Assembly (NCBI GenBank): GCA_028716065.1
Contig: JAQUQN010000004.1
Location: 1-35,114, forward strand
DNA: 35,114 nucleotides
Direction: 5' to 3'
Origin: Candidatus Omnitrophota bacterium
GTDB lineage: Bacteria; Omnitrophota; Gorgyraeia; 2-01-FULL-45-10
The stretch's first letter is position 1. The number at the start of each line of letters is the position of its first letter. Position numbers and translations under genes: made by a program. The notes beneath the pieces were generated by a model. It had not been told where the DNA came from. It saw only the letters and a program-made list of their open reading frames with translations, and searched no databases. This document shows, one piece after another, positions 4,690-24,371 of this stretch.

Positions 4690-5574
4690 GTGAAAAGAAG
4701 AACATTCTTCATTATGGCAGCGGCGCTACTTTGTGTTTTCTGCGCCGTGGCTGCAGTGGCAGTCTCATCTCTGGAGTATCAGCATGAAAGGACGAAAGAG
4801 CTGGTAGGCCTGGTCGATGACGCCGCTGGACTTGTAAAGGATAAAGGCGAGGCCGCGTTCCCTGAATTCAGGATCTCCGGCAGCAAATGGCTGACCGGCG
4901 ATACCTATATTTTCGTACTCGACCCGGAAGGCAACATGCTGGTCCATCCCGACGAGGCGCTTGAAGGAAAGAACGAAATGAACTTAAAAGACGCGAACGG
5001 AAAACCCATCGTCAGCATGCTCATAGAGACAGCTTCCGGCAAAGACGGCGAAGGATGGGTGCATTATCTATGGCCGAAGCCGCGCCAGATCGAGCCTTCA
5101 TGGAAGAGCGCTTTCGCGAAGGCCGTCACCGCTCCTTCCGGCAAGATATACATAGTGGGAAGCGGCTGTTACGACCTGAAGATGGAAAAGAAATTCATCA
5201 GCGATGTTGTCGATGAGGCGTCGAAACTGATCGAGAAGAAAGGCGCGAAGGCGTTCGCGGACATACGCGATAAGGCCGGAGCATTCACCTTCCTGGATAC
5301 TTATGTCTTTGTCGATACGCCTGACGGCGTGGAAGTGGTGAACGCCGCCTTTCCGTCAATAGAGGGCAAGAACATGATGAATTTCAGGGATGTTGGAGGG
5401 AAGTATGTCGTGATGGATTATATCAATGCCGCCCTTACCAAGGGCTCCGCATGGGTGGATTATCTCTGGCCGAAACCGGGCGAGACGAACCCATCGATAA
5501 AATATACCTACGTCAGAAAAGTAAATCACGGTAATGAGGTATTCATAGTCGGGTCCGGAGCGTACCTGGATTGA
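4690..5574 (+). CDS. exported protein with two tandem single-Cache (sCache_2-like) domains and no output domain
   Basis: Internal repeat TYIFVLD...EGKN..N.KDANGK...GWVHYLWPKP...IVGSG versus TYVFVD...EGKN..N.RDVGGK...WVDYLWPKP...IVGSG. Signal peptide present, no further transmembrane segment. Confidence 0.85.
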   Translation: MKRRTFFIMAAALLCVFCAVAAVAVSSLEYQHERTKELVGLVDDAAGLVKDKGEAAFPEFRISGSKWLTGDTYIFVLDPEGNMLVHPDEALEGKNEMNLKDANGKPIVSMLIETASGKDGEGWVHYLWPKPRQIEPSWKSAFAKAVTAPSGKIYIVGSGCYDLKMEKKFISDVVDEASKLIEKKGAKAFADIRDKAGAFTFLDTYVFVDTPDGVEVVNAAFPSIEGKNMMNFRDVGGKYVVMDYINAALTKGSAWVDYLWPKPGETNPSIKYTYVRKVNHGNEVFIVGSGAYLD

Positions 5575-5654
5575 GGCGCCGCCGGTCCTGTCACTTAGAA
5601 GGATTTTGTTATACGCTTTAAACAGATGATGCCTTGTAATTCAGATATTAAAAG

Positions 5655-6899
5655 ATGGATGCCTGTATGAAGAGACAAAAGATTCTGTTTCTTTTTCTTG
5701 CGGTTGTTGTCCTTGTTACGGCTTCCGGATGCGCGCATCTTCGTAACGCAGTGCCGAAAGACCTGACAGACTCGGCGGAGATAGCAGGCATGCCGGATAT
5801 CCGTTCATATTTCGATGACCCGAATCCTCTGGTCGAAAGAAGTCTCCTGGAGGCGATAAAGGAAGAGCCGAAAGGTGAATACCCTCTCAATGCCGAAGGC
5901 ATAAAGATCTATCCGATGCTTGCCCTATCGGGAGGCGCGGCGAACGGAGCCTACGGAGTGGGCCTCCTGAAAGGCTGGTCCGAGGAAGGCTCACGGCCGG
6001 TCTTCAAGGCCGTCACCGGAGTCAGCACGGGAGCCATCATCGCGGTCTTAGCGTTTCGGGGAAAGGATTATGATAACGAACTGGAGAAGTTGTATACGAC
6101 GGTTTCGACAAAGGACATCATGAAAGAGAAGGGATTGTTCAGCGCCGTTTTTGGAGACTCGCTGGCGAGCTCGAAACCGCTTGGGCGATACATCGCCTCT
6201 TTCGTGGATGAAAAACTATTGAAAAGAGTAGCCGAGGAGCACAGGCGCGGCCGCAGGTTATTCGTGGGAACCGTAAATCTCGACGCCCAGAAGTTCGTCA
6301 TATGGGACATGGGCGCCCTGGCCTGTAAAGGAGGGCCGGCAGCCGAGGAACTTTTCCAGAAGGTGCTCCTGGCATCGGCTTCCATTCCCGTTACCTTCCC
6401 ACCGGTCTATTTTAAGGTAGAGGCGGACGGAAAAGTTTATGATGAAATGCACGTGGACGGCGGCACCATGACCCAGGTATTTTATCTTTACGGATTTCTC
6501 AAGAACATGGAAGCCATGGCCAAGGCCGCGCATGTCAATCCGTCGAAGTTCAGGCCCGACCTTTACGTGATCAGGAACGGCTACGTCTCGGCCAACTGGG
6601 AGCAGGTGCGGGATAATCTCGCCTCCATCAGTTCCCGCGCCATCGATACGTTCGTTGACTCCCAGGCGGTAGGAGACCTATATAGACTATATGTCTTTAC
6701 GAAGAGAAGAGGAGGCACTTTTAACCTCGCCTATATCCCGCCCGATTTTAAGCCCAAGGCAAAAGAACTTTTCGACATGGCCGAGATGCGGCGCCTGTTC
6801 CTGAGGGGTTACCACGATGGCCTGAACGGCTACCAGTGGCACAAGACGCCTCCGGGTTTAAAGGAAAGTTCCGACGCCCAGGACTGGTCGACCAAATAG
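5655..6899 (+). CDS. patatin-like phospholipase lipoprotein (alternative start 5667)
   Basis: Lipobox ASGC, oxyanion loop SGGAANGAYG, nucleophile motif GVSTG, and DGG acid motif. Confidence 0.9.
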   Translation: MDACMKRQKILFLFLAVVVLVTASGCAHLRNAVPKDLTDSAEIAGMPDIRSYFDDPNPLVERSLLEAIKEEPKGEYPLNAEGIKIYPMLALSGGAANGAYGVGLLKGWSEEGSRPVFKAVTGVSTGAIIAVLAFRGKDYDNELEKLYTTVSTKDIMKEKGLFSAVFGDSLASSKPLGRYIASFVDEKLLKRVAEEHRRGRRLFVGTVNLDAQKFVIWDMGALACKGGPAAEELFQKVLLASASIPVTFPPVYFKVEADGKVYDEMHVDGGTMTQVFYLYGFLKNMEAMAKAAHVNPSKFRPDLYVIRNGYVSANWEQVRDNLASISSRAIDTFVDSQAVGDLYRLYVFTKRRGGTFNLAYIPPDFKPKAKELFDMAEMRRLFLRGYHDGLNGYQWHKTPPGLKESSDAQDWSTK

Positions 6900-6905
6900 A
6901 AGAGA

Positions 6906-8285
6906 ATGGCGAAATTCTCGAGATGCTTAATTCTTCTAGTTCTGGCCGTCTCGCTTGCGGGATGTGTGCACGATACGACGCGCCAGGCGGGCCTTCGTGC
7001 CTGGGCCGGCGAACTTCCTTTCGTTACACGCCAGATGAAGACGGCCGGATTCTGGATAGCGCGCCATCCCCATCCCGATAAAATCATATTGACCCCCAAA
7101 GAGATAACGTCTTATAACTCTTATATTACCTGTGACCTGGGACTTACCAACGATATTGCCAACGCTGCTCCCCGCTATTCCGGCGATTTATTATCCGGAG
7201 CGCTTAAGGAGGCGCTGAGTTCCGTCGAAGATAAGGGCCTTTACGATATCCACACTAGACCCGCGGGAAAGGCCTTTTTCGTACGAATGCAAAAGAAGAT
7301 GCGCCTGGAGGAGATAGGACCTGAAATAAATGTCAGATACGGTTTCATCAGCCGTTATTGCGACCAGCGCATCCTGCCTTCTGATGAGGGTCTCTTCGCT
7401 TCGCCCGACGATATCGATTTCGATGAATTACAGAATAGTTCCCTGGAGATAGGGGCCCCGGTCCTCATACTTCATGAAAGTAACGACGGGGCGTGGCTCT
7501 ATGTGGTGGCTGCGGCCAGTTCCGGATGGGTGAAGTCCGGCAACGTGGCGTTCTGTGATAAAGCCGTACTGGCCGATTATGTAAACAGAAGGCCCATTGC
7601 GGTCATGACGGCGAGCAAGGCCGATATCTACCTCGACCCTTCTTTAAGAGATCATTACGGTTATGTTCACATGGGTTTCGTCCTGCCGCTCGCCGAAGAA
7701 GGCGCCTCCGATGCGGTAAAGGTGATGGTGCCGTTCAGGGCCGACGACGGCAGGTTTACAGCTCGCGCCTGCTACATGAAAAAGGACGAAGTAAATATAG
7801 GATACCTTCCTTATACGCCGCGAACTATATTAGAGCAGGCATTTAAAATGCTCAATGCCCCTTACGGCTGGGGAGGCATGCGCGGCGAACAGGACTGCAG
7901 CATGTTCATCCAGGAAATATTCGGGACAGTGGGATTAAAGTTGCCCAGAAACTCCTCGGCTCAAGGAAAAGTGGGTTATCCCGCGGGTGAAATAGATAAA
8001 AATACTACAGATGAAGATAAATATGATATACTCTCAAAAAGGGCTATCAGCGGCATAACGCTTTTATACATGAAAGGGCACATCATGTTATATTTAGGCT
8101 CCGTCGATGGACGCCCGTATGCCATAAATGCCTTATGGGCTTACCGTGAAAAGCAAGGGGATGAGGAACTGACGCGTGTCGTGAACCGCGTGGCCGTGGC
8201 TGAATTATCGCTTGGCAAAGGCAGCGCGAAAGGTTCCCTTCTTAACAGGATCTCGTCGATTCGCATAATAGGTAATCCGCGTTGA
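6906..8285 (+). CDS. SH3-containing NlpC/P60 (C40) cell-wall peptidase lipoprotein
   Basis: Lipobox LAGC, PYGWGG...QDCS catalytic Cys, MKGHIMLYLG catalytic His, and an N-terminal SH3-type region (DFDELQNSSLEIGAPVLILHES..GAWLYV). Confidence 0.9.
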   Translation: MAKFSRCLILLVLAVSLAGCVHDTTRQAGLRAWAGELPFVTRQMKTAGFWIARHPHPDKIILTPKEITSYNSYITCDLGLTNDIANAAPRYSGDLLSGALKEALSSVEDKGLYDIHTRPAGKAFFVRMQKKMRLEEIGPEINVRYGFISRYCDQRILPSDEGLFASPDDIDFDELQNSSLEIGAPVLILHESNDGAWLYVVAAASSGWVKSGNVAFCDKAVLADYVNRRPIAVMTASKADIYLDPSLRDHYGYVHMGFVLPLAEEGASDAVKVMVPFRADDGRFTARACYMKKDEVNIGYLPYTPRTILEQAFKMLNAPYGWGGMRGEQDCSMFIQEIFGTVGLKLPRNSSAQGKVGYPAGEIDKNTTDEDKYDILSKRAISGITLLYMKGHIMLYLGSVDGRPYAINALWAYREKQGDEELTRVVNRVAVAELSLGKGSAKGSLLNRISSIRIIGNPR

Positions 8286-8330
8286 TATAACGGCGTTTCT
8301 GCCGTAGATTTTACAGGAAAGGAGGAAGGT

Positions 8331-8696
8331 GTGGTCATACTTGTAAAGAGTATAGGCGCGTTGATCATATTCGTGGGAGCGCTATGCATCTTGAACCCGC
8401 AGGCCATGAAAGGGCTGCTCTCTTTCTGGAAGGCGGGCAAGAGGGTATATGCGATAGGAATTATACGTCTGGTATTCGGCATATTATTTTTAATTGCCGC
8501 GCCGCAGTGTAAGGAGCCGTGGCTGATAAGGGTCTTCGGCGTCCTGATGCTCTTGAGCGCCTTTACCATTTTTTTCATGGGCCTGGAGAAGATAAAGGGA
8601 ATGTTCGAATGGTTCGATAAAAGGCCGTTATCCGTAATTCGTATACTGGCGCTTGTAGCTTTTGTTATAGGGGCTTTGATAGCATACTCGGCGTAA
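8331..8696 (+). CDS. 4-TM hypothetical membrane protein
   Basis: SD AGGAGG, GTG start, four hydrophobic segments. Confidence 0.75.
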   Translation: MVILVKSIGALIIFVGALCILNPQAMKGLLSFWKAGKRVYAIGIIRLVFGILFLIAAPQCKEPWLIRVFGVLMLLSAFTIFFMGLEKIKGMFEWFDKRPLSVIRILALVAFVIGALIAYSA

Positions 8697-8723
8697 AACT
8701 TAAAAGAAAGGAAGGATTTTGGC

Positions 8724-9293
8724 ATGGTGAATAGAATAGCGGTAGTCATATTTTTGTTATGCATGGTCGTTCAATGCGCATTTTGCGCGACGGAAGAACC
8801 TATCGGTTCGATGTACCAGGACAAGATGCCGGTTAAGGTATATATCAAAGGATTTACGGATGAATCAGGTAATAAGCTGATAAGTTCCGAGTCTTTTAAG
8901 AAGGCGATCGAAGACGGCCTTCTGAACAGGAAGTCCATGACGTTCAAGATAGTCGATGATCCCGCCCAGAGTGCCATACAGATATCGGGCGTGATAAAGA
9001 GATATCAGTATCTCGAGCGCGGTCCCATCAAATTATCGGTCGGCGTAGGCACCCTCATCGCGGACGCCGCGGCTACCGCGACCATGAATTATGCGGACAT
9101 GGTAGTGGACTTTACCGTGACCGACACGAAGACGAATAAGGTGGTGTGGAATGACACCATAGAGTCATACATAAAGAAGATAATGACGCCCGAGCAGAGT
9201 GTCCCTTTCGTGTACGGCAAGATGACGAGAGAGTTTTTGTGGAAATGCCTGGGTAAGCCCAAGAAGGCGGGCCATACCTTCGACATGATTTGA
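8724..9293 (+). CDS. exported hypothetical protein (LptE/CsgG/DUF4410-like alpha/beta fold, tentative)
   Basis: Signal peptide and the pattern VYIKGF...FKKAIEDGL...ISGVIKRY...VDFTVTDTKTNKVVW. Confidence 0.6.
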   Translation: MVNRIAVVIFLLCMVVQCAFCATEEPIGSMYQDKMPVKVYIKGFTDESGNKLISSESFKKAIEDGLLNRKSMTFKIVDDPAQSAIQISGVIKRYQYLERGPIKLSVGVGTLIADAAATATMNYADMVVDFTVTDTKTNKVVWNDTIESYIKKIMTPEQSVPFVYGKMTREFLWKCLGKPKKAGHTFDMI

Positions 9294-9336
9294 TGTGCTG
9301 TTGCACCTGTAACATACCTCCAATTATCCAGCATCC

Positions 9337-9368
9337 ATAGTAGGGGACATTTAAATGTCCCCTACTAT
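9337..9368. repeat. 32-bp perfect palindrome, GTAG-type REP-like element (copy A)
   Basis: ATAGTAGGGGACATTT|AAATGTCCCCTACTAT is its own reverse complement. It is related to the palindrome at 19727-19756. Confidence 0.8.
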
Positions 9369-9425
9369 TTAAATCCCTCTTTTTATATCACTTGTTAGGA
9401 ATCAAAAAATCTACCTAACTTTCTC

Positions 9426-9453
9426 TTGACTTAACGCAATTATATGATATATT
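9426..9453 (+). promoter_or_regulatory. sigma70 promoter for the riboswitch/giant gene leader
   Basis: TTGACT-16 nt-TATATT with TG at the extended -10 position. The predicted start site falls just before the aptamer. Confidence 0.6.
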
Positions 9454-9465
9454 TATACTACAGTA

Positions 9466-9556
9466 TATATTCTAGATAAAGGCAAATCCGCCGTAAGGCG
9501 GAGACGCAACATTCCAGATCTAGCATAAGATAGATGGCTGAATTGCCTAGAATATG
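9466..9556 (+). ncRNA. c-di-GMP-I (GEMM-I) riboswitch aptamer
   Basis: P1 ATATTCTAG/CTAGAATAT (9467-9475 with 9547-9555), then AAAGGCAAA, P2 TCCGCC-GTAA-GGCGGA with a GNRA loop, GACGCAA, P3 ATTC-CAG-ATCTA/TAGAT-CTG-GAAT, and TGCC. The equivalents of Vc2 G20, A47 and C92 are retained. Confidence 0.9.
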
Positions 9557-9578
9557 ACTTTTTAGGTGGTTCAGCCAT
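9534..9578 (+). promoter_or_regulatory. riboswitch expression platform: alternative 17-bp hairpin
   Basis: ATGGCTGAATTGCCTAG (9534-9550) pairs end to end with TTAGGTGGTTCAGCCAT (9562-9578), using 4 G-U pairs. It is mutually exclusive with aptamer P1/P3. Confidence 0.75.
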
Positions 9579-12500
9579 ATATATTTATGCAGATAATATA
9601 TAAATCCTCAATATTTAACTGGAAATTCATAAAGAAGACCCTTGCGGCCGTTCTGGCAGGGGTCTTTTTGTTTACGAATACTTTTAGCTGGGCGCAGGAA
9701 GAGAAGCTGTTCCTTACTGGAATGGGGAATACTTCTTCTTCCGGCCCGGCTAATACCTCCAAACTGGCCCCTAAACTTTTCCTGGCCAATGCCGAAAAGC
9801 GCGCGGAATTGCAGGCAGCGTTGATATGCGACCTCATCGAAAAAAACGCTAATTACGGCAAAAAGATTGATGAGGTTAATCTGAGAGATCTTCTTTTGTG
9901 GAAAGGCGCTAAGGACAGGGCCTTCGACAATTGCACATTTCAAATTCTGCCTGGAGAGATAAGGATAAATATACCCCAAAGCAACCTTAGCGTCCGTTAT
10001 TACGATCCACAGGTAGTGGGTAATGCCCTTCCGCCTTATTCCGATGTCCGCGACCTTAAAACACGGCCGATCGGCCCCTCGCCGTTTGATCCCGCGAGAC
10101 TTCAGAGACAGATAATCTACAGGGTAAGAGCGCTGCCGGAACCGCGCTCCGAAGAGACGTCAAAATCGCCTAGCCGGATATTCAGCATGTTTAGCGATAT
10201 GAAGGAAAATCCCGGATCAGATTATAAGAACATGCTTGGGGTATTACTTGAAAAAGCAGCTCATCTTGACAGGCCATTTGTATTAGAAATAAGGGACGAG
10301 GAAGGTAACCTCAAGAAGATTTCGATATATAGAAAAAATCTTGAAGGTGATTATGACAGGGAAGATATAAAAACTAAAGATACGAAGTATTTCGACCTCC
10401 TTGCGACAGAGGGAGCCGTCGAAGTGGCCGAAGTCAGGTTATCGAAGGATAATCTGATAATCGGTGTTACCAAATTAAGTTATGAAACTGATTTTAATAG
10501 AGTCAACATCGAAATGCGGGATATAAGGATTACGAAAGTCTTGGACGAATTGAAAAAGAGGCTTCCGATGTATGCCGAATTTATCGACGATCAGTATGAA
10601 TTGGGTTATCTTGGATGTAAAGAGATGGTCTACAAGTATGACGGTATTAACTGCCGCTACCGGATTTTACTCCCTCATTTCATAGACGAAGCCTTTAGAA
10701 AAGTGCGGCAAAAGAGAGGCTACGCGGACAACACGAGAATGGTATTTTTGAAAGCAGGGGCGGAACCTTTGGCCGAAATCGCCAGGGTGATGGCCCGCAT
10801 CGACAAAGGACGGTTTCCAGAAAGCGCTATTTGTAGCGTCTGGGGCACGATGGGTAATTATAAAGCAGTTAAAGAGGGCCTTGCGGCGCACGACCCTACC
10901 CAGGCGGCCTATTTCCTGAAATATCTCCACGACCATGGAGTTCTCGGACCGAATATAAACAATATTTTGTTCGTAGATACAGACTCCAGGATCGGATCTC
11001 GCTATGGCATGGTCTCCAGGACAGGTCCCCCCATAGGTACGGAGCTTCTCATCTATCGTACCCTATTAAACAGGGATGCTGTCAACGAAGCAAATAAGCT
11101 TTTCGGAAGAGACGGGTATGAATTTTCATGTTGGAATGAGAAAAATGGCGTTCGTTCGGCAGAGATGTTTTACATGTACATCGATCCGGATACAGTGAAG
11201 TTACCGGAATTTGCTCTGGCAGCGGAGGGTATATCCGGCGATGAACAGAAGGAATATGATACAAGGATGAATGTATCTTCTTTCAACCACGGTATTGATC
11301 TGAAAATAACAAGAAACAGGATATCTATGCTATGGGCGAAGGTGGACGATGTGTCAAAAACCGAATCAGTCGACGAAGAGTTTATTCTTAAAGATGATGG
11401 TACGGCAGGGCTGCGCAGCAGGAAACCCTACCGGCAACCGAATATGGGTGTAAGGCTCGAGATACAGAATGTGCTCGAATATGCCGGCTTCGTGATGGGG
11501 ACGCTCGATTTTATGGAGGCGCAGGGCTTCGACGTCTCCGAAGAGGCCGAGAGATACTTCGCGGAACTTGGCAGAAAATTTGAAGAAATCAGCGGGAAGA
11601 ATAGAGATAATATCAGTTTATCCAAGATGCAAGAACCATCTGTACTGACGGCATCCGCATTCGAAGATACCACGAAGCCCGGCAGCCTGCATTTTCTCGG
11701 TAAGATACTGGGAATACGCTACACGAGTTATTTTCACGCGCCTGTCATAGAGGAACTCTTCAAGATAGGGGGGCCTTTGACGTTATCTGCGATAGTGGAA
11801 AGACTCCACCCCGGCTGGCCTGTCCTGAACACGCTTGTATTCACGACTTTCCTCGCGGTTTTTGGCGTCACCTACATAATTCTTCACACGCTCAATGAAA
11901 GAGCGCCTCCCGAAGAAGCTACCGGAATAAAAGATAAGCTGAAATTTTATTATAATGAACTCAAATCCATCCGCTCTAACATCAAAGCCCTCACCAGGGA
12001 ACAAAAACTGAATATATTCCGCGGCCCCTTCCTGATAGCAGTGTCCGGAATCATAATGTCCATGATATTCATAACAGATCCATCGATGACCCTAATGAGC
12101 AGCATGCTCGCCCACCTGGTCATAGATGTTGGGATCGAGCACTTTAAGAACAATGATAAAACGCCGCCCGAGCCGGGCACGGCGGCGTACCAGAAGAATC
12201 TTGAACGTTTGAGAAGCAACCTGATAAAAGATCCTGGGAGCGTATCAACACGTGACGCTATGCGGAGTATATTGTATGAAGCAGGCATCGGCGTGAGGGA
12301 GCAGGTTTCTGATAATTTGATATCCAATCTTATATATGTTACGAGAGAACTCCTGATAAACCCCATACAATCAGCCGCATTATTGAAAAGGAATATTAAG
12401 AGCAGTTATGGGGTTGAGATGGATCTGCAGGATGTAAGGGACATCTATATATTATTGAGACGTTTGAGCGTTATCCAGGACCTCCTGACATACGAATCGG

Positions 12501-15500
12501 CAAGGCCGAGAGCGCTGAGCGTATTCAGAGAATTTTTGGCGCTAGAACCGGCCAGGATCGAAAGGATATTGGGGGGTGAAATAACGCCGTTGGCCCTTGA
12601 GATCCACCCAAGCCCGCGATGCAACTTCAGGTGCGCCCACTGTTTCAACGCGACGGCGTTGCAAAGGACCGGTGAAGTAAAAATAAAATCTTTTGCGGCT
12701 GCGGTGAGTCCCGAAGAGAAAGAGAGGGCGCTCGGGCTTATAAGCCAATATATCGCCAGCGGCGTCGACAAAATATATCTGAGTGGCGGTGGAGAGCCGT
12801 TCATGGAAGACCTGCATTCTTATATCGACCATATAAGGAAAACCAGCCCCGACATATATGTTTCCATAAATACGAATGGCGAGCTTCTTACAGAGAGAGA
12901 TATCGCGTTATGCGTCGCGAAGGTCAACAGGCTCTTTTTCTCCATGGATGCCGCGACTTCGCGCACGTTGGGGCGTCTGAAAGGCATAGAAGACAGCGAG
13001 AGTGAGGCGCGGTTCTTCAGGATCGTGAGCAATATGCGCCGGGCCGTGGCGACGAGGGATCAGCAAAGGATTGAAGGGAAGACTTCTCTGAAGATTGGCA
13101 TGGGTTTTGTCGTGGGCGAGATCAACTGTGTGGAAACGGAACAGTTCTTAAAGCTCGCGAAGGATACTGGAGTCGATTTTGTCAATTTCACCGCCCGGTT
13201 AGGTAAGGGCGAGTATGATTCAAAGATCTTGGATACGATCGAAAATATCTACCGCAAGGTAAGGGCGGGCGAGTTCGGCGGCATAGCCGTATTTTTTGAC
13301 GATTCATTCTCGCAATATCTGATGCAGAAAGAATTACGCGAGTCGAATGACGTAACCGGCAGAGAAGCGATGCTAGCAAAAGGTATCTGTTCGGTGGCCT
13401 CCGGCCTTTTGACGCCTGCTTATGCCGCTGGCGCAGGCTTTGTGTTTAGCTGCATCACTAAAGCCCAACCGGCAAATTCGAGCGACCGCTACAAGCTGTT
13501 CAATACGCGGCAGGTTGCTTTACGAAGCGTCAAGGAACTTATGGAGGATAAAAAAGCCGATTTGAGAGCATTAGACCCGGCCGAATGCGAGTATTGCAGG
13601 AAAGCGGATAAGTATATTAATGAGATAATAACAGCTATTAGAGAGGATGCAAAAGATGGTTTGAAAGTGTCTGAACTTCCGATAATTTTCTACGAGGACT
13701 CTTATCTGCGAACGATGGGCATAGGAAAAGGGGGCAGAGTCGATTTAGCCGGCTCGCAAGGGCCCGCCTTGTATCATTTGCCAGGAACGAAAACGTCGAG
13801 TTCAGGTACCGGCCCTGCGCTCTTTGTTGATCCGGACGGCACGGTGCGCGAGCTCAGTCAAGATGAACATAAGGAACTTAATCCAAAGCTTGCTGAAATA
13901 GTCGGTGACTTCGACAATCCCAATAAAGGTGTTGAGAAATTATCTCTGGGAAAGACAGTAGAGCTCTGCGGTCAAACGCATATAGGCCCGGATAAGAATA
14001 GAGGTCCTCCTGTATCGGTATACGTCATCGATGACGAAAAGCTCCCTGAAAAGTTCCAAAACGGCCTCATAACTCATGCCGGCACATTCAAAGGCAAGGC
14101 ATATAACCTCTTCATCCCGCGTTCAGTATACAACGTACTTCTTATATTAACACCAGCAGAACTACAGATCTGGCGCAACCACGAAGTCGGCCATCTCCTC
14201 GATCGCACTGCCAATATCACGCCTACAGAAGAAGAAAAAGAAGTAGCGAAGAAGATATATGAAGCTGCTAGGAAAGCCCCCGCGCCGGCAACGGCCGCGC
14301 CGCAGAAGAGGATAAGTCCGCTGAATCTTGAGAAAATGCCGGCCGGAGAGCTTTTATCCGCTTTGGGTCTAAAGGATCCTCGCAGCATAGAGGGAGCCGA
14401 TATTATCGGTGAAACAGAGGAATATGGTTATACAAGGCAAAGGATTAGCGTAAGAGAACAACTAGACCTTATTCAGCCGCCACGGGGCATATCGATTTTA
14501 CAGCGGGAGCTGGCCAACCCCGATGTCCTAAGGATTAAAGAATTCGACCTTATCTATAACAAAGATGGCCATTTGATAGCAGTCTTTCCTGTCCTGGCTC
14601 CCGGCATGAAACCGTCTGCCGATGATTTAAAATATTTTGATTTCAGCTATTATTATTTCGAAATTCCCAGCGTTAAGGATTCGGATGCGCGGGCTAAATG
14701 GACAGGATTCGCCCGTTCAAGAGAGGCGGATGCATCGTTGATAGAGGATTATAAAACGAGGCATGGTCTTGACGGAATAGAGATGGTCGGAAAGCATCAA
14801 TCGCCGTATATTTATATCGGCGTCAAAGGTGATATGGAGAATGGATGGGATCCTACCGAGATAATAATCGATGACCCTGACAATATCTTCCTGCCGGAAC
14901 CCGAGGATGGCATGGAGCAGATAATAATACCAGTTTTCCCAACGGTCTATTCGCCGGCGCATTGGATGCACAAGGGCGGTGATAAGAGGTATTATGATAA
15001 ATTTTATGAGGGTTCTCAACTGGCAAAGGGCCAGGATATACTGATAATCGGACCGGGTACGGGATGTGACACATGGCTCGCGTGGCTTAAGACGCGGAAT
15101 AAGATGTTCGCAGTAGGATATAACCCGCTGGAAATAGCCAACCTGCGCGCAACCGCTGGAATAGCCGGCTTCGAAGTAGAAGCGGTGGTCGGTGATAATA
15201 TAATCGATGAAGAAGGAAGGCCCAGGTTCGGAGAGAGGAAATTCGACCGTGTCTCCTGGAACATGCCCGCTTATAATCAGATCTATGATGTCGAAAAGCC
15301 CGGTCAGGTTATAAGATCACTTAGCGAGGCATGGGACGGGGATAAGGGGGGCGTTATCCTAAGGCGTTTCGCGAAAGGCCTTCCCGAAGTATTGAAACGG
15401 GGTAGTGGAGCGTTGTCACGGATCTGGAATCAATCTACCTATAACCCGGATATCGACATGATCATGGAAACCGGCGGAGCGAGAAATACTACCGACAGGC

Positions 15501-16798
15501 CTCTTGAGGTTGAATGGAAGAATTCCGCCTATATTATAAAATTGAAAGGCAATATTCAGGAGAAGATTATATCTGCACAGGGTACAGTTTCCGGAGATAT
15601 TAATGCTATAAGAAAAATGTTGGGGATCGAAGGCGAAGAAGAGAAGATAGTGGAGGAAAGAGCGTATAGTAACGGTATATATTATCGGGATCTTATTTCT
15701 TTTACTGAAAATTCAATAATAACGACGACTCGTATCGAACCGGCCGGCATGTCAGGAATGACGACAGACGGGGAAGGGATAAGGTGTTTCTATGAACATG
15801 AGATCGAATGGATACCCGGCAAAACAAAAATAGTTTACCGCAGGACCAAGGTAACCAAAAAAGAGGAAGTGAGCGCGAAAGAGACAGTTCGTGAAGAATT
15901 TGTAACATGCGTGTACAAGGGGCCTGAAGCGAGGGTGAAGATAGGCCTGAAAGACGGCAAACCTTTCCTCGTCATGAATGATAACGCGTTAGAATATTTC
16001 AGGCAGAAGGGTTTCGATATCAGGCGTCGTGAGGATAAGCCTTATCTTGCCATGGGGTGCTGGGGCGCGGTCCCTGAAGATAGACAGATAGCATATGTAG
16101 ACAAAAACGAAACGCTGTTCAAAGAGATGCTCGGCGAAGGGAAAGAACCGGTTCTATTGAGGGTTCCGGTGCAGGGTCTTGAGGCGATGGCCGTCGAAAA
16201 TGCCAGAGACTTCCTGGAAGCGTTCCAGAAAGCGCCCAACGCATATGTGGAATTATTTTCCACAACCGGTAGCGGTGAGGTAAACGCTGCTGATTATCAG
16301 AAAAAATACGGCTTTGAGAAAAAGTCCTTGCCCGAAGGTTTCATGAGGACAAGAAAGAATACAATAACCCTATTTGCCGCGTCAAAAGACGAGAATATTG
16401 ATAAACCGAGCATTGATTCAAGGCTTGGGTCCATTGGCATGAAACAGGAAGATACGCTTCTTTCCCCGATAATCTTGGGGTGCGATGAGGCCGGCCTCGT
16501 TAGGGCGACCATTTTCGGGTTAAAGATGCTCGAAATATCAAAAACTAGGCAAAATAAAACCAGAGAGAAGCTTTTAGCCGAGGTGTTGATGGCCTTGCTC
16601 GACTATAAAAACGCCTGCGATCCCGGCACGCCTTTTGAATTCAGTCATAAAGAGGTAGAAGATATATTGGGCCTTATCGAAGGCAATATTAACAGGGTCG
16701 TTGCCGCGTTAAAGAAGTTGCTGCAGTTCCTGCCCGCAAAACCGATAGACGGCGCAGCCCTGATAAGGCACGCGATAAAGGTCATGACAGCCGCCTAA
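9566..16798 (+). CDS. giant (2410 aa) exported/membrane mosaic protein: signal peptide, CPBP-like TM segment, radical SAM, HExxH domain, class I SAM methyltransferase (likely start ATG 9587)
   Basis: Signal KKTLAAVLAGVFLFTNTFSWA; APVIEE/F..H/H...D TM motifs; CNFRCAHC (12620-12643) with LSGGGEP and TNG; HEVGH (14180-14194); ILIIGPGTG and FDRVSWNMP. Confidence 0.9.
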   Translation: MVQPYIFMQIIYKSSIFNWKFIKKTLAAVLAGVFLFTNTFSWAQEEKLFLTGMGNTSSSGPANTSKLAPKLFLANAEKRAELQAALICDLIEKNANYGKKIDEVNLRDLLLWKGAKDRAFDNCTFQILPGEIRINIPQSNLSVRYYDPQVVGNALPPYSDVRDLKTRPIGPSPFDPARLQRQIIYRVRALPEPRSEETSKSPSRIFSMFSDMKENPGSDYKNMLGVLLEKAAHLDRPFVLEIRDEEGNLKKISIYRKNLEGDYDREDIKTKDTKYFDLLATEGAVEVAEVRLSKDNLIIGVTKLSYETDFNRVNIEMRDIRITKVLDELKKRLPMYAEFIDDQYELGYLGCKEMVYKYDGINCRYRILLPHFIDEAFRKVRQKRGYADNTRMVFLKAGAEPLAEIARVMARIDKGRFPESAICSVWGTMGNYKAVKEGLAAHDPTQAAYFLKYLHDHGVLGPNINNILFVDTDSRIGSRYGMVSRTGPPIGTELLIYRTLLNRDAVNEANKLFGRDGYEFSCWNEKNGVRSAEMFYMYIDPDTVKLPEFALAAEGISGDEQKEYDTRMNVSSFNHGIDLKITRNRISMLWAKVDDVSKTESVDEEFILKDDGTAGLRSRKPYRQPNMGVRLEIQNVLEYAGFVMGTLDFMEAQGFDVSEEAERYFAELGRKFEEISGKNRDNISLSKMQEPSVLTASAFEDTTKPGSLHFLGKILGIRYTSYFHAPVIEELFKIGGPLTLSAIVERLHPGWPVLNTLVFTTFLAVFGVTYIILHTLNERAPPEEATGIKDKLKFYYNELKSIRSNIKALTREQKLNIFRGPFLIAVSGIIMSMIFITDPSMTLMSSMLAHLVIDVGIEHFKNNDKTPPEPGTAAYQKNLERLRSNLIKDPGSVSTRDAMRSILYEAGIGVREQVSDNLISNLIYVTRELLINPIQSAALLKRNIKSSYGVEMDLQDVRDIYILLRRLSVIQDLLTYESARPRALSVFREFLALEPARIERILGGEITPLALEIHPSPRCNFRCAHCFNATALQRTGEVKIKSFAAAVSPEEKERALGLISQYIASGVDKIYLSGGGEPFMEDLHSYIDHIRKTSPDIYVSINTNGELLTERDIALCVAKVNRLFFSMDAATSRTLGRLKGIEDSESEARFFRIVSNMRRAVATRDQQRIEGKTSLKIGMGFVVGEINCVETEQFLKLAKDTGVDFVNFTARLGKGEYDSKILDTIENIYRKVRAGEFGGIAVFFDDSFSQYLMQKELRESNDVTGREAMLAKGICSVASGLLTPAYAAGAGFVFSCITKAQPANSSDRYKLFNTRQVALRSVKELMEDKKADLRALDPAECEYCRKADKYINEIITAIREDAKDGLKVSELPIIFYEDSYLRTMGIGKGGRVDLAGSQGPALYHLPGTKTSSSGTGPALFVDPDGTVRELSQDEHKELNPKLAEIVGDFDNPNKGVEKLSLGKTVELCGQTHIGPDKNRGPPVSVYVIDDEKLPEKFQNGLITHAGTFKGKAYNLFIPRSVYNVLLILTPAELQIWRNHEVGHLLDRTANITPTEEEKEVAKKIYEAARKAPAPATAAPQKRISPLNLEKMPAGELLSALGLKDPRSIEGADIIGETEEYGYTRQRISVREQLDLIQPPRGISILQRELANPDVLRIKEFDLIYNKDGHLIAVFPVLAPGMKPSADDLKYFDFSYYYFEIPSVKDSDARAKWTGFARSREADASLIEDYKTRHGLDGIEMVGKHQSPYIYIGVKGDMENGWDPTEIIIDDPDNIFLPEPEDGMEQIIIPVFPTVYSPAHWMHKGGDKRYYDKFYEGSQLAKGQDILIIGPGTGCDTWLAWLKTRNKMFAVGYNPLEIANLRATAGIAGFEVEAVVGDNIIDEEGRPRFGERKFDRVSWNMPAYNQIYDVEKPGQVIRSLSEAWDGDKGGVILRRFAKGLPEVLKRGSGALSRIWNQSTYNPDIDMIMETGGARNTTDRPLEVEWKNSAYIIKLKGNIQEKIISAQGTVSGDINAIRKMLGIEGEEEKIVEERAYSNGIYYRDLISFTENSIITTTRIEPAGMSGMTTDGEGIRCFYEHEIEWIPGKTKIVYRRTKVTKKEEVSAKETVREEFVTCVYKGPEARVKIGLKDGKPFLVMNDNALEYFRQKGFDIRRREDKPYLAMGCWGAVPEDRQIAYVDKNETLFKEMLGEGKEPVLLRVPVQGLEAMAVENARDFLEAFQKAPNAYVELFSTTGSGEVNAADYQKKYGFEKKSLPEGFMRTRKNTITLFAASKDENIDKPSIDSRLGSIGMKQEDTLLSPIILGCDEAGLVRATIFGLKMLEISKTRQNKTREKLLAEVLMALLDYKNACDPGTPFEFSHKEVEDILGLIEGNINRVVAALKKLLQFLPAKPIDGAALIRHAIKVMTAA

Positions 16799-17260: not shown

Positions 17261-17296
17261 AGCGGGGGCGGTTCATCTAACCGTCCCCGCTTTTTT
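17261..17296 (+). terminator. intrinsic terminator
   Basis: 13-bp stem AGCGGGGGCGGTT / AACCGTCCCCGCT, loop CATCT, followed by a T run. Confidence 0.85.
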
Positions 17297-17745: not shown

Positions 17746-18933
17746 ATGGATATGAAGAATATGAGATGGAACGTGTTGTCGAGGGCGGTGGCGGTGCCGT
17801 TATGTTTCTCTTTTTTGCTTACCGGCTGCGCGTCCTTTCCGGTCCAGACCGGAGCCAAATACGCCAAGGACCTCTACAGGCGTATCCCTTATAAGGTAGA
17901 GGGTCAGTACAGGGTGATAAATGTCTTTTACGCGACCGACAGGGTAGTAGAGGAGAAGAAAGATTCCTCATTATCCTTTAAGCATAAAATGGCCAAGGGC
18001 ATGACATACGGCGACCTGACCGTCAAGATAGACCCCAGCATAAAGATAGGAAAGATGCTTCCGCGCAGGTTAAAGATGAAGGGCGAGATAGGCATCCAGG
18101 AGATAGCGAGGTTGAATGACGACGTATTCATTAAGCAGTTGACCGACGCCGTCGCCGCCTCTCCGCATAACTCATTGCTCGTGATGGTATTCGGCTACAA
18201 GGACGATTTCGAGGCCACAGCCATAAAGGCGGCGTATTTCTCGTATCTTCTGGACGTCAACACACCGGTTCTCTTGTTCGATTGGCCCGGCGACCAGCCG
18301 TTCGCCATCGCAGGTTATTTCACGGCGCAGTCTTGCGCCAAGGAATCGGGGCCATATTTAGGCGAGCTATTGACGACGATAATACGTAAAGTGAAGCCGG
18401 AAAAGCTATGGGTAAAGGCATCGAGCCTAGGATGCCAGGTGGTCTGCGACGCTTTCGACCACATGTATAAATATGATGACCTTTCGGACGCGGACATGGA
18501 AATAGACCACGTTATCCTTGCCGCGCCGGATGTTGGACAGAATGAATTTGATAACCAGTTCAAGGATGAGCTGGCCGCGCTTTCGAAAAAACTCACGACC
18601 TACGTATCCTCCAATGATACGGCTCTATTGATGAGCGGGATGTTGAACCAGGAGAAGCGGCTTGGCAGGCAAAAGGAGGTCCCCCACGAACAGTTTGACG
18701 AGGCAAAGGACCTGCTCTATCTTAAGTCGCTCCATCCCGACAGGATCACCGTCATAGATGTGACGCCCATCAACGTGGCGTCTTACAAGCACGGTTATTA
18801 TCTGGAGTGCCCGGAATTTTATGACGACTTTTACATGCGTATCTTCGATAAAGACCCGAACGTGAATAGACGTCTATATCTTCTCACGTTCAAGGATAAG
18901 GTAGATTATTGGGTGCTGCAGAACGACAAGTGA
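17746..18933 (+). CDS. DUF900-type alpha/beta hydrolase lipoprotein (likely start 17752)
   Basis: Lipobox LTGC, NVFYATDR, FDWPG, nucleophile elbow ASSLG, ILAAPDV, YVSSND.AL, KHGYY. Confidence 0.85.
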   Translation: MDMKNMRWNVLSRAVAVPLCFSFLLTGCASFPVQTGAKYAKDLYRRIPYKVEGQYRVINVFYATDRVVEEKKDSSLSFKHKMAKGMTYGDLTVKIDPSIKIGKMLPRRLKMKGEIGIQEIARLNDDVFIKQLTDAVAASPHNSLLVMVFGYKDDFEATAIKAAYFSYLLDVNTPVLLFDWPGDQPFAIAGYFTAQSCAKESGPYLGELLTTIIRKVKPEKLWVKASSLGCQVVCDAFDHMYKYDDLSDADMEIDHVILAAPDVGQNEFDNQFKDELAALSKKLTTYVSSNDTALLMSGMLNQEKRLGRQKEVPHEQFDEAKDLLYLKSLHPDRITVIDVTPINVASYKHGYYLECPEFYDDFYMRIFDKDPNVNRRLYLLTFKDKVDYWVLQNDK

Positions 18934-19691
18934 AGCATCTTTTATTAACCTTATTAGCGTTGACATGCGTGGCTGTTGCGCCTGGCGAGACAGAAATAAA
19001 AACGCATCCGGCGCGGTTACCCGTCGGTGAAGTATTGGTTTATAAAGTGACGTGGCTGGGCATACCCGTAGGCACGGCGAAGGCATCCGTAAAGGGAATA
19101 AAGAAGATAAACGGACGCGATGCCTATGAGCTGGAGATCGAGGCCAGGACCAACGAATTTTGTTCCCGCATATACAGGATCGAGGACCGCTACATATCTT
19201 ACATGGATGTTAACGAACTCTACACGCTGCGCCACGAAGTTTACCGCCGTGACGGCCGCTACAGGAAGGACGCCGTCACGGATTTTGACCAGATAAACCA
19301 CAAGGCCTATTTTCAGAACTTCCTCGATAAATCGAAAAAGGTGTTGGATATCCCGCCCGGAGTGCAGGACCCGGTCAGCATGATCTATTACTTCAGGATG
19401 GTCCCGCTCAAGATAGGCGAGATGAAAGAATATAACGTTTATAATAACGAATCCACGTACCAGATTTACGGCGTGGCGGACCGCTTGGGCATGATAAAGG
19501 TGCCGCATCTGGGCATGAGGAAGGTCTTTCATCTGCAGCCGTACGCGAAACTTAAAGGCGAGGAAGTAAAGAGAGGCAGGGCGAGCGCCTATTTCAGCTG
19601 CGATGAGGACAGGATACCTTTAATAGGCATCGTCAAGGGGCCCGTATTTACTCAGGTCGTAGGTTATTTGGAAAAAGGGGATCCTTCTTAA
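18930..19691 (+). CDS. DUF3108 domain exported protein
   Basis: GTG start overlaps the upstream TGA (GTGA). Motifs GEVLVYKVTWLGIPVGTA, QDPVSMIYYFR, DEDRIPL. Confidence 0.8.
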   Translation: MKHLLLTLLALTCVAVAPGETEIKTHPARLPVGEVLVYKVTWLGIPVGTAKASVKGIKKINGRDAYELEIEARTNEFCSRIYRIEDRYISYMDVNELYTLRHEVYRRDGRYRKDAVTDFDQINHKAYFQNFLDKSKKVLDIPPGVQDPVSMIYYFRMVPLKIGEMKEYNVYNNESTYQIYGVADRLGMIKVPHLGMRKVFHLQPYAKLKGEEVKRGRASAYFSCDEDRIPLIGIVKGPVFTQVVGYLEKGDPS

Positions 19692-22701: not shown

Positions 22702-24371
22702 TCTTCAATAGCCGGCTTACTCAAATCCTTATCCATGACAACTCTCTCGTATTCCGTAAGAGCCATCATTAACCCTGCCTTTGCCCAGTTGAGCGGCGTG
22801 ATGGGCGATGGAAGGTAGTATCTCTTGCCGTCTATCACCGCCGTATTGATACTTTCCGGGGTCTGCCACGCCTTTACATTTTTACCATCAGCGGTTATCA
22901 TCTCCCCGGTTATCTGTCCGAGCGCGCGCTTCAGGTGGACCGTCGCGAAATAGATATCCTCTCTCTTCAATTTCGGGTCCTTCGTTATCTCGGCTAAGTG
23001 GAGCCTCGCCAGGACGAGGAGGCTGTCGAAGAACCACTGGGCCTCGGTGTCAGGTATGAGCTTGCTCAGCCGCCATAAAAATGCGTTTGCAGATGATGTG
23101 TCGCCGGTAAGTGAAGGTTTATCCTTTTCTTCTTCGGAGGTGTCTTTGATCCAGTAATTTCCTGACTGGTAACTGTCATTACGATAGCGGAGGATCCCCG
23201 CCGGCCGGACGAGCGTTTCGATTATGAGGAGGGCCTTTCTGGCCTCTTCTTCCGAGAGCCCCTCCAAAGGCGATGGTTGTATCAGGACGACCAATGCGAA
23301 ATCGGCAAGACGGAAATGTATATCTTCCGGGTCGTAATCAGGAGATTCGCCCCCGAGCCGCAACTGATATTTTACCTTTGCGAGGCCCCTGTCCACCAGC
23401 CGGCCCAGCATCGGTTCCGTCCACATGCTATGTATTTCGCTTTTGCCGCCGTCTTTTTTAAGAAATTCATCGAATCTATCGCGGAATAATTCCGCTTCGT
23501 CCGAGGCCTTAGAGCCATACATCACGCTTTTCCAGGCCTGTATGGAACGCGTGGCGAGAGCTATGCTGGAGGTATTCCTGCGCTGTATCTCCTCCCATGC
23601 GCCGGCGTCCTCATACTCTTCGAAACCGATACGGTAGAGAAAGAGGGGGTAGAGGCTCAATACCTTTAGACGTTTTTCCGAGAGGTCGTTCGGCCCTACC
23701 ATATTTTTTTCTATTGCCTCGGCGAGCGCCGTGAAGAATAGCCCATGCGCGTCTATTTGGCTATGGTTCCAGGTTTCGGGTTTTCCGTCTATCATGACGT
23801 CGCCCAGGTCCGGAGAGTTGGCATCGAAGCGTATGTGCGGCATCGCCATCGGATCCTTGGATAGTTTAGGGTCGGCGATGATATTCTCGAAGCGCGATAT
23901 CTGCGCGTCGGTCGCGTAATAGTCCCACAATGCAAGTAGCATTCTTCTTGCGTCTTCTCTCCGTTCCGGATCCTGGAGTAATGAATAATATATCCAGACG
24001 CTGTCTCTCACCCATATGGCGTCATAGTGGGTCTCGTCGGTTTTACCGCTGACGGCTCGCGTGGCCGCGGAGGCAAAGCCTCTCTTATTCAGCTCTATGC
24101 GCAGATGAGGAGCGAGCGTCCGACGTATCTCGCCGATCAATTGCTTATCGAGCTTTTTGGCGACCCATTCGGCTATCTTTTCATTGAAAGCTACGACGAA
24201 TTCTCCTTCGGGAGTGAGGACTTCCCTGTAAGGAGTAGTGGATGAGACATAATCCTTCACTTTTTGATAGGCGGACTGTTTTTCATTGGTTTCCGTAGCC
24301 AGAGTAGGTGACAAGCAGACTAAAAAAGCGCCAATTAACAATAAAAACGCTCCCATTATCCGTTTTGACAT
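22698..24371 (-). CDS. exported GH15-like (six-hairpin, phosphorylase-kinase-alpha/beta-related) glycoside hydrolase
   Basis: SD AGGAGG, signal peptide, YDAIWVRDS, QIDAHGLF, AGAWEE...NTSSIALA, GILRYRNDSY, PLNWA. Confidence 0.75.
   Translation of the reverse strand: MSKRIMGAFLLLIGAFLVCLSPTLATETNEKQSAYQKVKDYVSSTTPYREVLTPEGEFVVAFNEKIAEWVAKKLDKQLIGEIRRTLAPHLRIELNKRGFASAATRAVSGKTDETHYDAIWVRDSVWIYYSLLQDPERREDARRMLLALWDYYATDAQISRFENIIADPKLSKDPMAMPHIRFDANSPDLGDVMIDGKPETWNHSQIDAHGLFFTALAEAIEKNMVGPNDLSEKRLKVLSLYPLFLYRIGFEEYEDAGAWEEIQRRNTSSIALATRSIQAWKSVMYGSKASDEAELFRDRFDEFLKKDGGKSEIHSMWTEPMLGRLVDRGLAKVKYQLRLGGESPDYDPEDIHFRLADFALVVLIQPSPLEGLSEEEARKALLIIETLVRPAGILRYRNDSYQSGNYWIKDTSEEEKDKPSLTGDTSSANAFLWRLSKLIPDTEAQWFFDSLLVLARLHLAEITKDPKLKREDIYFATVHLKRALGQITGEMITADGKNVKAWQTPESINTAVIDGKRYYLPSPITPLNWAKAGLMMALTEYERVVMDKDLSKPAIED

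Follow-up and report, generated by a model that had tools for sequence, protein, structure and literature searches.

Why should a bacterium place a chain of cofactor-dependent, cytoplasmic-type enzymes in one polypeptide behind an export signal? The question is raised by a 35,114-nucleotide stretch of a Candidatus Omnitrophota genome (assembly GCA_028716065.1, contig JAQUQN010000004.1, positions 1 to 35,114; hereafter, the window), in which one stop-free frame of 7.2 kb, the giant gene, codes for a giant protein of about 2.4 thousand amino acids (kaa). Omnitrophota are ultrasmall, largely host-dependent bacteria, and the presence of cofactor-needing cytoplasmic enzymes behind export signals is a published puzzle of their giant proteins. 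We found that the giant gene is a member of an unnamed family, limited to one Omnitrophota class, that is capped at both ends. All of its members follow one plan: a Sec-type leader, a short variable linker, the sequence L-[A/S]-P, a head module of ~130 amino acids (aa), a hypervariable cargo of cytoplasmic type, and a terminal tail module of 230 aa. We consider it reasonably probable that three properties apply together to the giant protein, i.e., this architecture, export from the cytoplasm, and expression through an ON riboswitch that senses cyclic dimeric guanosine monophosphate (c-di-GMP).

The giant gene is real and comes from an Omnitrophota bacterium. The earlier note on this DNA had reported one long open reading frame (ORF) at 9566-16798, and the frame is indeed uninterrupted; the probable start codon is the ATG at 9587, which gives 2403 aa and agrees with a public gene call for the identical protein. 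The source is a metagenome-assembled genome of 1.40 Mb in 174 contigs (75.5% complete, 4.2% contamination), with the giant ORF on contig 4. This fragmentation, and the near absence of homologs for the middle 1,950 residues, could be taken as signs of an assembly chimera or of a decaying pseudogene that has no function as a single protein. We regard such an origin as extremely improbable. The frame stays open over 7.2 kb, the catalytic motifs are intact, and codon usage is uniform, each of the four quarters correlating with the other genes of the contig at r 0.78-0.81 (a weak substitute for read support); the GC content of third codon positions ranges from 0.46 to 0.61 across the quarters. Moreover, a related protein (P0003) is collinear across residues 1415-2176, and head and tail are held by a single ORF here, as in more than 70 relatives.

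The two end modules define the family. A homolog search over the whole length of the giant protein yielded only two partial relatives: P0003 (3548 aa), which shares the block with the HEVGH motif and the methyltransferase, carries it twice and also contains cytidine deaminase and HEAT repeats, and P0004 (1754 aa, with a starch-synthase domain), which has only the final 230 residues in common with the giant protein. These last 230 residues were used as the tail query in an exhaustive HMMER search (E<=1e-3), with representatives clustered at 50% identity. The tail was found in 182 representative proteins of 215-4420 aa, at the extreme C-terminus in every match listed; among genomic copies it ends 0-2 aa before the stop codon in 43 of 43, and the last residue is alanine in 39 of the 43. 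The tail of the giant protein is a typical copy (E 1.3e-87) that closes with the residues TAA directly before the stop. A hidden Markov model (HMM) of the head, built here, matched 71 of the 114 full-length representatives that carry a tail, and most of the others have a different head, likewise behind a leader. The giant protein has the leader, the L-[A/S]-P and the head (HMM E 5.7e-67). The head follows a linker of variable sequence after the leader; L48 and P50 are invariant in the head alignment, and the ~130-aa domain that follows is marked by the motifs A.IC..IE, E.I..P, RYFDP and Q.I.

Both modules are predicted to fold well. The AlphaFold2 model of the tail (predicted local distance difference test, pLDDT, 93.6; predicted template modelling score, pTM, 0.92) comprises an alpha/beta half and a five-helix bundle, so that the helical C-terminal domain proposed earlier describes one half of the module and not the other. 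The head model (pLDDT 81, pTM 0.74) has two helices and a five-stranded sheet. Foldseek searches of the two models against PDB gave nothing significant, the best E-values being 0.03 for the tail and 0.6 for the head, with TM-scores <0.3 among the top-ranked matches. It should be noted that the head can be split: in L020 (G033:C5, gene 4982-10072, minus strand) and in P0009, its helical half and its beta-sheet half lie ~350 residues apart with cargo inserted between them (an HD domain in P0009). In L027, a partial head-like module at residues 3395-3495 stands directly before the tail.

The cargo between the end modules is exchanged to a great extent. The search for proteins with the same N-terminal (AELQAALIC) and C-terminal (LLRVPV...NTITLF) domains, which the earlier note had proposed as a check, returned many, and the cargo between the two domains is wholly different; the word "paralogs" used there does not fit, as the genome of the giant gene holds a single tail-bearing gene. 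Only three family proteins match any part of residues 200-2170 of the giant protein. Pfam identified 47 different families in one sample of 35 members and 32 in another of 37 (72 members in total). They include Radical_SAM (7 members), B12-binding, several S-adenosylmethionine (SAM) methyltransferase models, cytidine deaminase, GT5 starch synthase, NTP transferase, HAD, APH, PHP, HD, HATPase_c, UDP-GlcNAc 2-epimerase, class-V aminotransferase, NAD epimerases, DnaJ, adenylate kinase, receiver, Fis and PucR helix-turn-helix (HTH) and protein kinase domains. Among 262 pairs with tails at least 60% identical, 96% have no cargo similarity, a figure inflated by the clustering of the representatives at 50% identity. 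A fixed domain order with a single pathway role is not what we observed; the cargo differs among relatives.

The tail relatives belong to Candidatus Omnitrophota. Of 401 genomes sampled from the phylum, 25 carry the tail, all of one class, in 1-7 copies each, and its distribution is patchy even within the taxonomic family to which the genome of the giant gene belongs. The head was found in 39 of 401 genomes of the class and begins ORFs of up to 10,736 aa; four genomes without any tail (G246, G249, G117 and G039) encode head-bearing giants. Since the head module also heads such giants, we place the giant protein, small as it is, among the relatives of the giants published from Omnitrophota. In the genome of the giant gene, another contig (C21; L089:3918-10100 and 10108-14214) carries two tandem head-bearing ORFs without a tail, one of 2060 aa with HATPase_c and one of at least 1369 aa with an MraZ-like match, directly after the gcpE and prolyl-tRNA synthetase genes.

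What does the giant protein itself carry? The earlier note described normally cytoplasmic enzymes strung together after a signal peptide, and both profile searches and the leader sequence agree with that description, although two of the individual domain names did not survive. We searched the protein against Pfam, NCBIfam and PDB; Pfam finds Radical_SAM only (PF04055, residues 1014-1158, 46.4 bits versus a cut-off of 29.5). This domain was correctly recognised before, and its cluster motif CNFRCAHC at residue 1019 is intact. Its subfamily scores are below the NCBIfam equivalog cut-offs (viperin_w_prok, 47 versus 180; moaA, 42 versus 284; W_rSAM_matur, 55 versus 380), and matches to viperin and MoaA in PDB appear only at E>=1e-4. 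Judged by NCBIfam, PDB and PADLOC, the sequence is nearest to the MoaA / viperin / SPASM-maturase group, far under all subfamily cut-offs. A defence-system reading was dropped, as PADLOC yields only weak pVip-like radical SAM matches.

The unit that precedes the tail is probably a class-I methyltransferase (residues 1587-2176), and probably an N-directed one. It has no Pfam match, and the HemK2/MTQ2 model TIGR00537 covers residues 1820-1949 at E 1.9e-6, with 27.7 bits versus a cut-off of 87. Its motifs GPGTG, NPLEIAN, GDNI and WNMPAY are conserved among its few relatives; GPGTG and WNMPAY are kept in both copies of P0003 and in P0154-P0157, and P0157 carries PF13847 (Methyltransf_31) and PF06325 (PrmA). 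Motif IV reads N-M-P-x-Y, not NPPY. For the HemK-like methyltransferase proposed earlier, these conserved motifs are set against a profile score below the cut-off. The HExxH module had been noticed as well: HEVGH is present at residue 1539 and in P0003, whereas P0026, the other of only two relatives, reads HEIAGH, in which the spacing is broken. An assignment to zincins is therefore unsafe, and the module has no match in Pfam or PDB.

Two other proposals were not upheld. Residues 200-700 had been read as a possible PRTase-like region; PF00156 gives no match on the ORF even at E<=10 and finds six other loci of the genome, and the region has no match in Pfam, NCBIfam or PDB and no homolog when used alone as a query. 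The hydrophobic block at residues ~705-862 had been called CPBP-like. It does contain two strong transmembrane (TM) helices; however, PF02517 has no match (E<=1 for the protein, E<=10 for the genome), a genuine CPBP gene was found on contig 9, and the likeness of the block to CPBP is a resemblance at the level of motifs only. The linkers rich in Pro, Ser, Ala and Gly were seen rightly: short P/S/A/G/T-rich linkers lie at ~46-66, 1393-1420 and 1560-1580. A peptide resemblance between the linkers at 54-69 and 1407-1420 was considered as a recombination scar and rejected, the DNA similarity not exceeding that of shuffles.

These linkers and the HExxH motif bear on the idea that the giant protein is a polyprotein precursor from which single enzymes would be released by cleavage in the linkers, whether by the protein's own HEVGH module or membrane-block protease or by a protease of the host. 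The short linkers between modules and the HExxH motif speak for such a precursor. We nevertheless judge it quite improbable. The candidate junction motifs RSExR, GARL and GLEE are absent from the giant protein and are not enriched in the family over shuffles (5 versus 6.3, 4 versus 6.4 and 2 versus 2.2 expected, respectively), and no other recurrent junction motif emerged de novo. Furthermore, the CPBP profile is negative, the HExxH spacing is broken in P0026, and the likeness of the two linkers lacks support at the level of DNA.

The expression of the giant gene is predicted to be controlled by a riboswitch, as had been suggested. A sigma-70-like promoter is followed by a full-length c-di-GMP-I aptamer and, overlapping its 3' side, by a hairpin of 19 bp (Table 1). 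The hairpin (minimum free energy -54.3 kcal/mol, z -8.95) is called as terminator-like and buries AGGTGG (9564-9569) together with the GTG at 9566. Because the ligand-stabilised P1 helix and the platform hairpin are mutually exclusive, we predict an ON switch, i.e., expression at high c-di-GMP. In G051, a genome of the same taxonomic family, a promoter, aptamer and hairpin 78% identical to those of the giant gene lie directly upstream of a family member with B12-binding, radical SAM and HAD cargo; the equivalent hairpin is followed by a U-tract, and the flanks are unrelated. As promoter, aptamer and hairpin are kept there with different cargo and unrelated flanks, the promoter, switch, head and tail act as a unit, with the payload exchanged inside it. 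No riboswitch was found in the loci of P0003 and P0004.

In the genome of the giant gene, c-di-GMP-I was matched at seven sites. A downstream ORF can be read for six of them, the giant gene included, and all six of these ORFs have N-terminal hydrophobic leaders; the genome also has 11 GGDEF matches and 3 secretins. Three of the riboswitches precede paralogs of a ~1210-aa leader-bearing protein that starts ...AETYEYYYWNS, and two others precede leader-bearing proteins of 411 aa and 201 aa, one each. In another genome (G303:C37:21435-21546 and 23171-23253, minus strand), c-di-GMP-I matches lie immediately 3' of the stop codon of a tail-family gene, a position from which they would control the genes that follow rather than the tail-family gene itself.

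The leader is the basis for the view that the family is exported. In the giant protein, cleavage of the signal peptide would be expected between SWA and QEE; in close relatives the leader helix reads ...ILAGVFLFTNTxSWA after a K/R-rich n-region, and a leader is visible in 20 of 22 complete genomic genes. The family-wide charge is +3.3 ahead of the leader helix and -0.8 behind it, and 92 of 119 members have no TM helix besides the leader, internal helices such as those of the giant protein being atypical. From this charge bias and the lack of internal helices, we infer that the family is exported via Sec.

Several observations weigh against the combination of shared architecture, export and ON switch, the upward bias of the cargo-swapping figure among them. 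Export is deduced from sequence alone. The cargo requires SAM, ATP, NAD, B12 and iron-sulfur (Fe-S) assembly, and we know of no extracytoplasmic cofactor supply for radical SAM or SAM-, ATP- and NAD-dependent enzymes; the leader of the giant protein has no twin-arginine motif, which would permit export of a folded Fe-S protein. A by-eye count gives the loop 775-816 a charge of about +3 and the sequence beyond residue 860 about +2, which fits three spans, and a block of three spans would bring the radical SAM domain, the methyltransferase and the tail back into the cytoplasm. The metagenome set includes short leaderless proteins that consist of the tail only, which may be fragments. A riboswitch stands directly upstream in only 2 of the ~43 family genes examined, so that control by c-di-GMP would be lineage-specific and not a trait of the family. 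Finally, apart from the second family of large proteins described below, neither sorting machinery nor a conserved neighbour gene was found in 22 family loci.

The topology of the block leads to a different view of the giant protein, namely that it is anchored in the membrane. With an odd number of spans in the 705-862 block, the leader would export only the head and the orphan region (~45-700), and the radical SAM domain, HEVGH module, methyltransferase and tail would act inside the cell, for example, by modifying a substrate that is exported or sensed via the outer part. The hydrophobic helices of the block, two strong and one or two weak, agree with this arrangement, and so do the positive charges of the by-eye count, which are placed as in the cytoplasmic loops of a three-span topology, and the requirement of the enzymes for SAM, reductant and Fe-S assembly. 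Many Omnitrophota long proteins have, in addition, been interpreted as membrane-anchored with the bulk in the cytoplasm (bioRxiv 10.64898/2026.06.07.730766). We consider this view unlikely for the following reason: the 92 of 119 members without an internal TM helix have the same leader, the same tail and similar cargo, including radical SAM, and the orientation of the tail relative to the membrane would then vary from member to member. A three-span return to the cytoplasm cannot be the general solution for the family.

The explanation that we prefer, export of the whole protein under an ON switch, can be represented as the following sequence of steps. Transcription would begin at the giant gene's own promoter. 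Without c-di-GMP, the 19-bp terminator-like hairpin would form and bury the ribosome-binding site; with c-di-GMP bound, the aptamer would take the 5' arm of the hairpin, and the giant gene would be expressed. The leader would direct the product to the Sec translocon. Head and tail may act as address or assembly modules that the family uses at one and the same later step, be it display on the surface, release or docking, while the activity would come from the exchangeable cargo. In the giant protein this cargo consists of the 500-aa orphan region, a membrane block of 2-4 helices, the radical SAM domain, the HEVGH module and a PrmA/HemK-like N-methyltransferase unit.

Where would enzymes with such requirements work once outside? 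One answer is that the giant protein is a delivered effector array, exported by Sec and passed into a host or prey cell whose cofactors activate the enzymes, with head and tail as translocation signals. All cargo types require cytoplasmic cofactors, and Omnitrophota have been reported to be host-dependent or predatory (as cited in West-Roberts et al., 10.1101/2023.11.21.568195). The genes for patatin, NlpC/P60-SH3 and DUF900 hydrolases beside the giant gene, the predicted tie of expression to c-di-GMP, and a cassette-like turnover of cargo that resembles effector repertoires are also in line with delivery. Conversely, no translocation machinery is linked to the family, no immunity-like gene was found, and DnaJ, adenylate kinase, aminotransferase and HTH regulators are not obviously offensive. 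On balance, we think delivery of this kind improbable, albeit worth considering. In a related proposal, to which we assign a similarly low probability, head and tail would serve as paired address labels for an undescribed sorting or delivery pathway of one Omnitrophota class; it would export whole cytoplasmic-type enzymes (radical SAM, B12, SAM, ATP, NAD; chaperone and regulator domains), most plausibly into an attached host or prey that has the cofactors, and in the lineage of the giant gene an ON riboswitch that travels with the gene would time the delivery to the attached state.

It is instructive to compare the giant protein with known systems. Mosaic giants of Omnitrophota have been described as "Archaeovorins" (West-Roberts et al. 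2023, bioRxiv 10.1101/2023.11.21.568195), and a "multi-enzyme metabolic cluster" class of Omnitrophota long proteins has also been reported (bioRxiv 10.64898/2026.06.07.730766). The published giants have the same kind of cytoplasmic mix (GT5, SAM methyltransferases, radical SAM, HAD, HD, HATPase_c, GNAT, response regulators) preceded by a signal peptide, TM helices or both, and our head module is also found on ORFs of 5,000-10,700 aa. Archaeovorins combine giant size with GT, methyltransferase, GH, peptidase and NUDIX domains, frequently with a C39 or S8 head and a pilZ gene downstream. Compared with them, the giant protein is far smaller at 2.4 kaa, has no C39, S8, GT, GH or NUDIX domain and no pilZ downstream (the downstream ORF was checked for PilZ), and shares with them only the mosaic principle and the methyltransferase and radical SAM content. 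Neither the head/tail pair nor the c-di-GMP riboswitch is described in the searched passages of 10.1101/2023.11.21.568195 and 10.64898/2026.06.07.730766, and a full-text literature search on Omnitrophota c-di-GMP riboswitches returned only a ComFB paper and its preprint, on a different subject. Mosaic Omnitrophota giants as such are already known.

The type example of c-di-GMP-I (GEMM-I) riboswitches is Vc2 of Vibrio cholerae. The riboswitch of the giant gene has, like others of this class, a full-length aptamer, and its downstream hairpin excludes the ligand-bound aptamer fold, which is also seen in other ON switches; the difference is in the predicted target, a 7.2-kb mosaic-enzyme gene. Polymorphic toxins (CdiA, Rhs, MARTX) combine conserved trafficking parts with swappable enzymatic modules, and close relatives of the giant protein similarly hold unrelated payloads. 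In contrast to these toxins, the variable part is central, both ends are conserved, and the payloads are mostly of housekeeping type; the gene neighbourhoods of the family yielded neither an immunity gene nor a dedicated transporter, and no autoprocessing domain turned up, Pfam giving no CPD or Rhs match. The C-terminal domain (CTD) of the type IX secretion system (T9SS) is a sorting tag of ~80-100 aa that folds as a beta-sandwich and is combined with an N-terminal signal peptide. The Sec leader and a conserved domain at the extreme C-terminus of many unrelated cargos are common to both systems, whereas the tail described here has 230 aa, an alpha/beta half and a helical bundle, and no relative in PDB.

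The practical value of the giant gene is that it makes the puzzle of the Omnitrophota giants tractable. At 2.4 kaa it can be cloned, unlike giants of 30-150 kaa; it has two short, confidently folding marker modules without PDB relatives, one of which also heads true giants, and it carries a self-contained promoter and c-di-GMP riboswitch. The destination and the recognition of the enzymes thus become ordinary experimental questions. If head and tail are sorting tags, a new secretion or assembly route would follow; if the enzymes stay inside, the reading of such proteins as extracellular enzymes would be corrected.

The coordinates of the features discussed here and of nearby elements are collected in Table 1. 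A small protein gene 3' of the giant gene, for which Pfam has no family, is possibly co-transcribed with it, as no terminator-like site precedes the small gene. The genes on either side of the giant gene (5655-8285 and 17746-19691) code for a patatin-like phospholipase, a peptidoglycan hydrolase with NlpC/P60 and SH3b domains, an alpha/beta hydrolase of the DUF900 type and a DUF3108 protein. The hydrolase genes could be a lytic set; the neighbourhoods of the relatives differ, and no synteny was found between the giant gene neighbourhood and the loci of its closest relatives.

Table 1. Positions of the giant gene, its control region, its modules and associated loci (window coordinates unless a contig or locus is named)
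Feature	Coordinates	Strand	Details
Sigma-70-like promoter (predicted)	9426..9453	+	TTGACT-16-TATATT, extended -10 TG; 10/12 matches; conserved in G051 leader alignment
c-di-GMP-I (GEMM-I) aptamer	9471..9550	+	RF01051, 59.1 bits versus gathering 35; model positions 1-87 of 87
Expression platform, 19-bp hairpin	9534..9578	+	Overlaps aptamer 3' side; A/T-rich tail after
Giant ORF	9566..16798	+	2410 aa from GTG 9566; single stop-free frame
Sec-type signal peptide (putative)	9587..9694	+	MQIIYKSSIFNWKFIKKTLAAVLAGVFLFTNTFSWA, then QEE; K-rich n-region, hydrophobic core, predicted cleavage SWA/QEE
Head (N-) module	9758..10147	+	Residues 65-194; begins at invariant L-A-P
Orphan cargo region	10163..11665	+	Residues 200-700
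Hydrophobic block	11678..12151	+	Residues ~705-862; strong TM helices 756-774 and 817-835; one or two weaker flanking helices
Radical SAM domain	12578..13615	+	Core residues 1014-1158; CX3CX2C at 1019-1026; Cys 1275, 1296, 1341, 1344
Small conserved module with HEVGH (1539)	13808..14260	+	~150 aa; common to P0003 and P0026
Methyltransferase unit (probable)	14324..16093	+	Residues 1587-2176; class-I core ~1780-1990: GPGTG, NPLEIAN, GDNI, WNMPAY
Tail (C-) module	16094..16795	+	Residues 2177-2410; ends ...VMTAA-COOH
Small protein, 118 aa	16883..17239	+	Own putative signal peptide MKKIVIVILALAFVAGLSYA, then AEK; 3' of giant gene
First intrinsic-terminator-like site 3' of giant gene	17261..17291	+	
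Other c-di-GMP-I match, same genome	C10:4301-4392	-	
Other c-di-GMP-I match, same genome	C22:4333-4413	-	
Other c-di-GMP-I match, same genome	C112:3198-3278	+	
Other c-di-GMP-I match, same genome	C171:790-870	+	
Other c-di-GMP-I match, same genome	C102:52-138	-	
Other c-di-GMP-I match, same genome	C8:23456-23536	-	Weak
Second-family ("HIQDAHCN") locus	L024:8925-13643		
Second-family ("HIQDAHCN") locus	L031:11492-15245		
Second-family ("HIQDAHCN") locus	L035:11692-16104		
Second-family ("HIQDAHCN") locus	L037:11629-14379		
Second-family ("HIQDAHCN") locus	L038:12650-15216		

The 1.4-Mb bin is rich in long genes: its contigs together hold 19 frames that stay open over 1500 codons or more, many of which run off contig ends (up to 5229 codons), and assembly has probably broken these long genes into pieces. 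A second family, also of large proteins with a signal peptide and with a conserved ~500-aa head of the form FTVP.HLGEV...VIHIQDAHCN...NLEGG.G.YDL, occurs directly downstream of a tail-family gene in 6 of 22 loci. In the genome of the giant gene, this second family has at least 5 copies (C23, C137, C149, C115 and C81), one of which is an ORF of 2226 aa with a GGDEF match.

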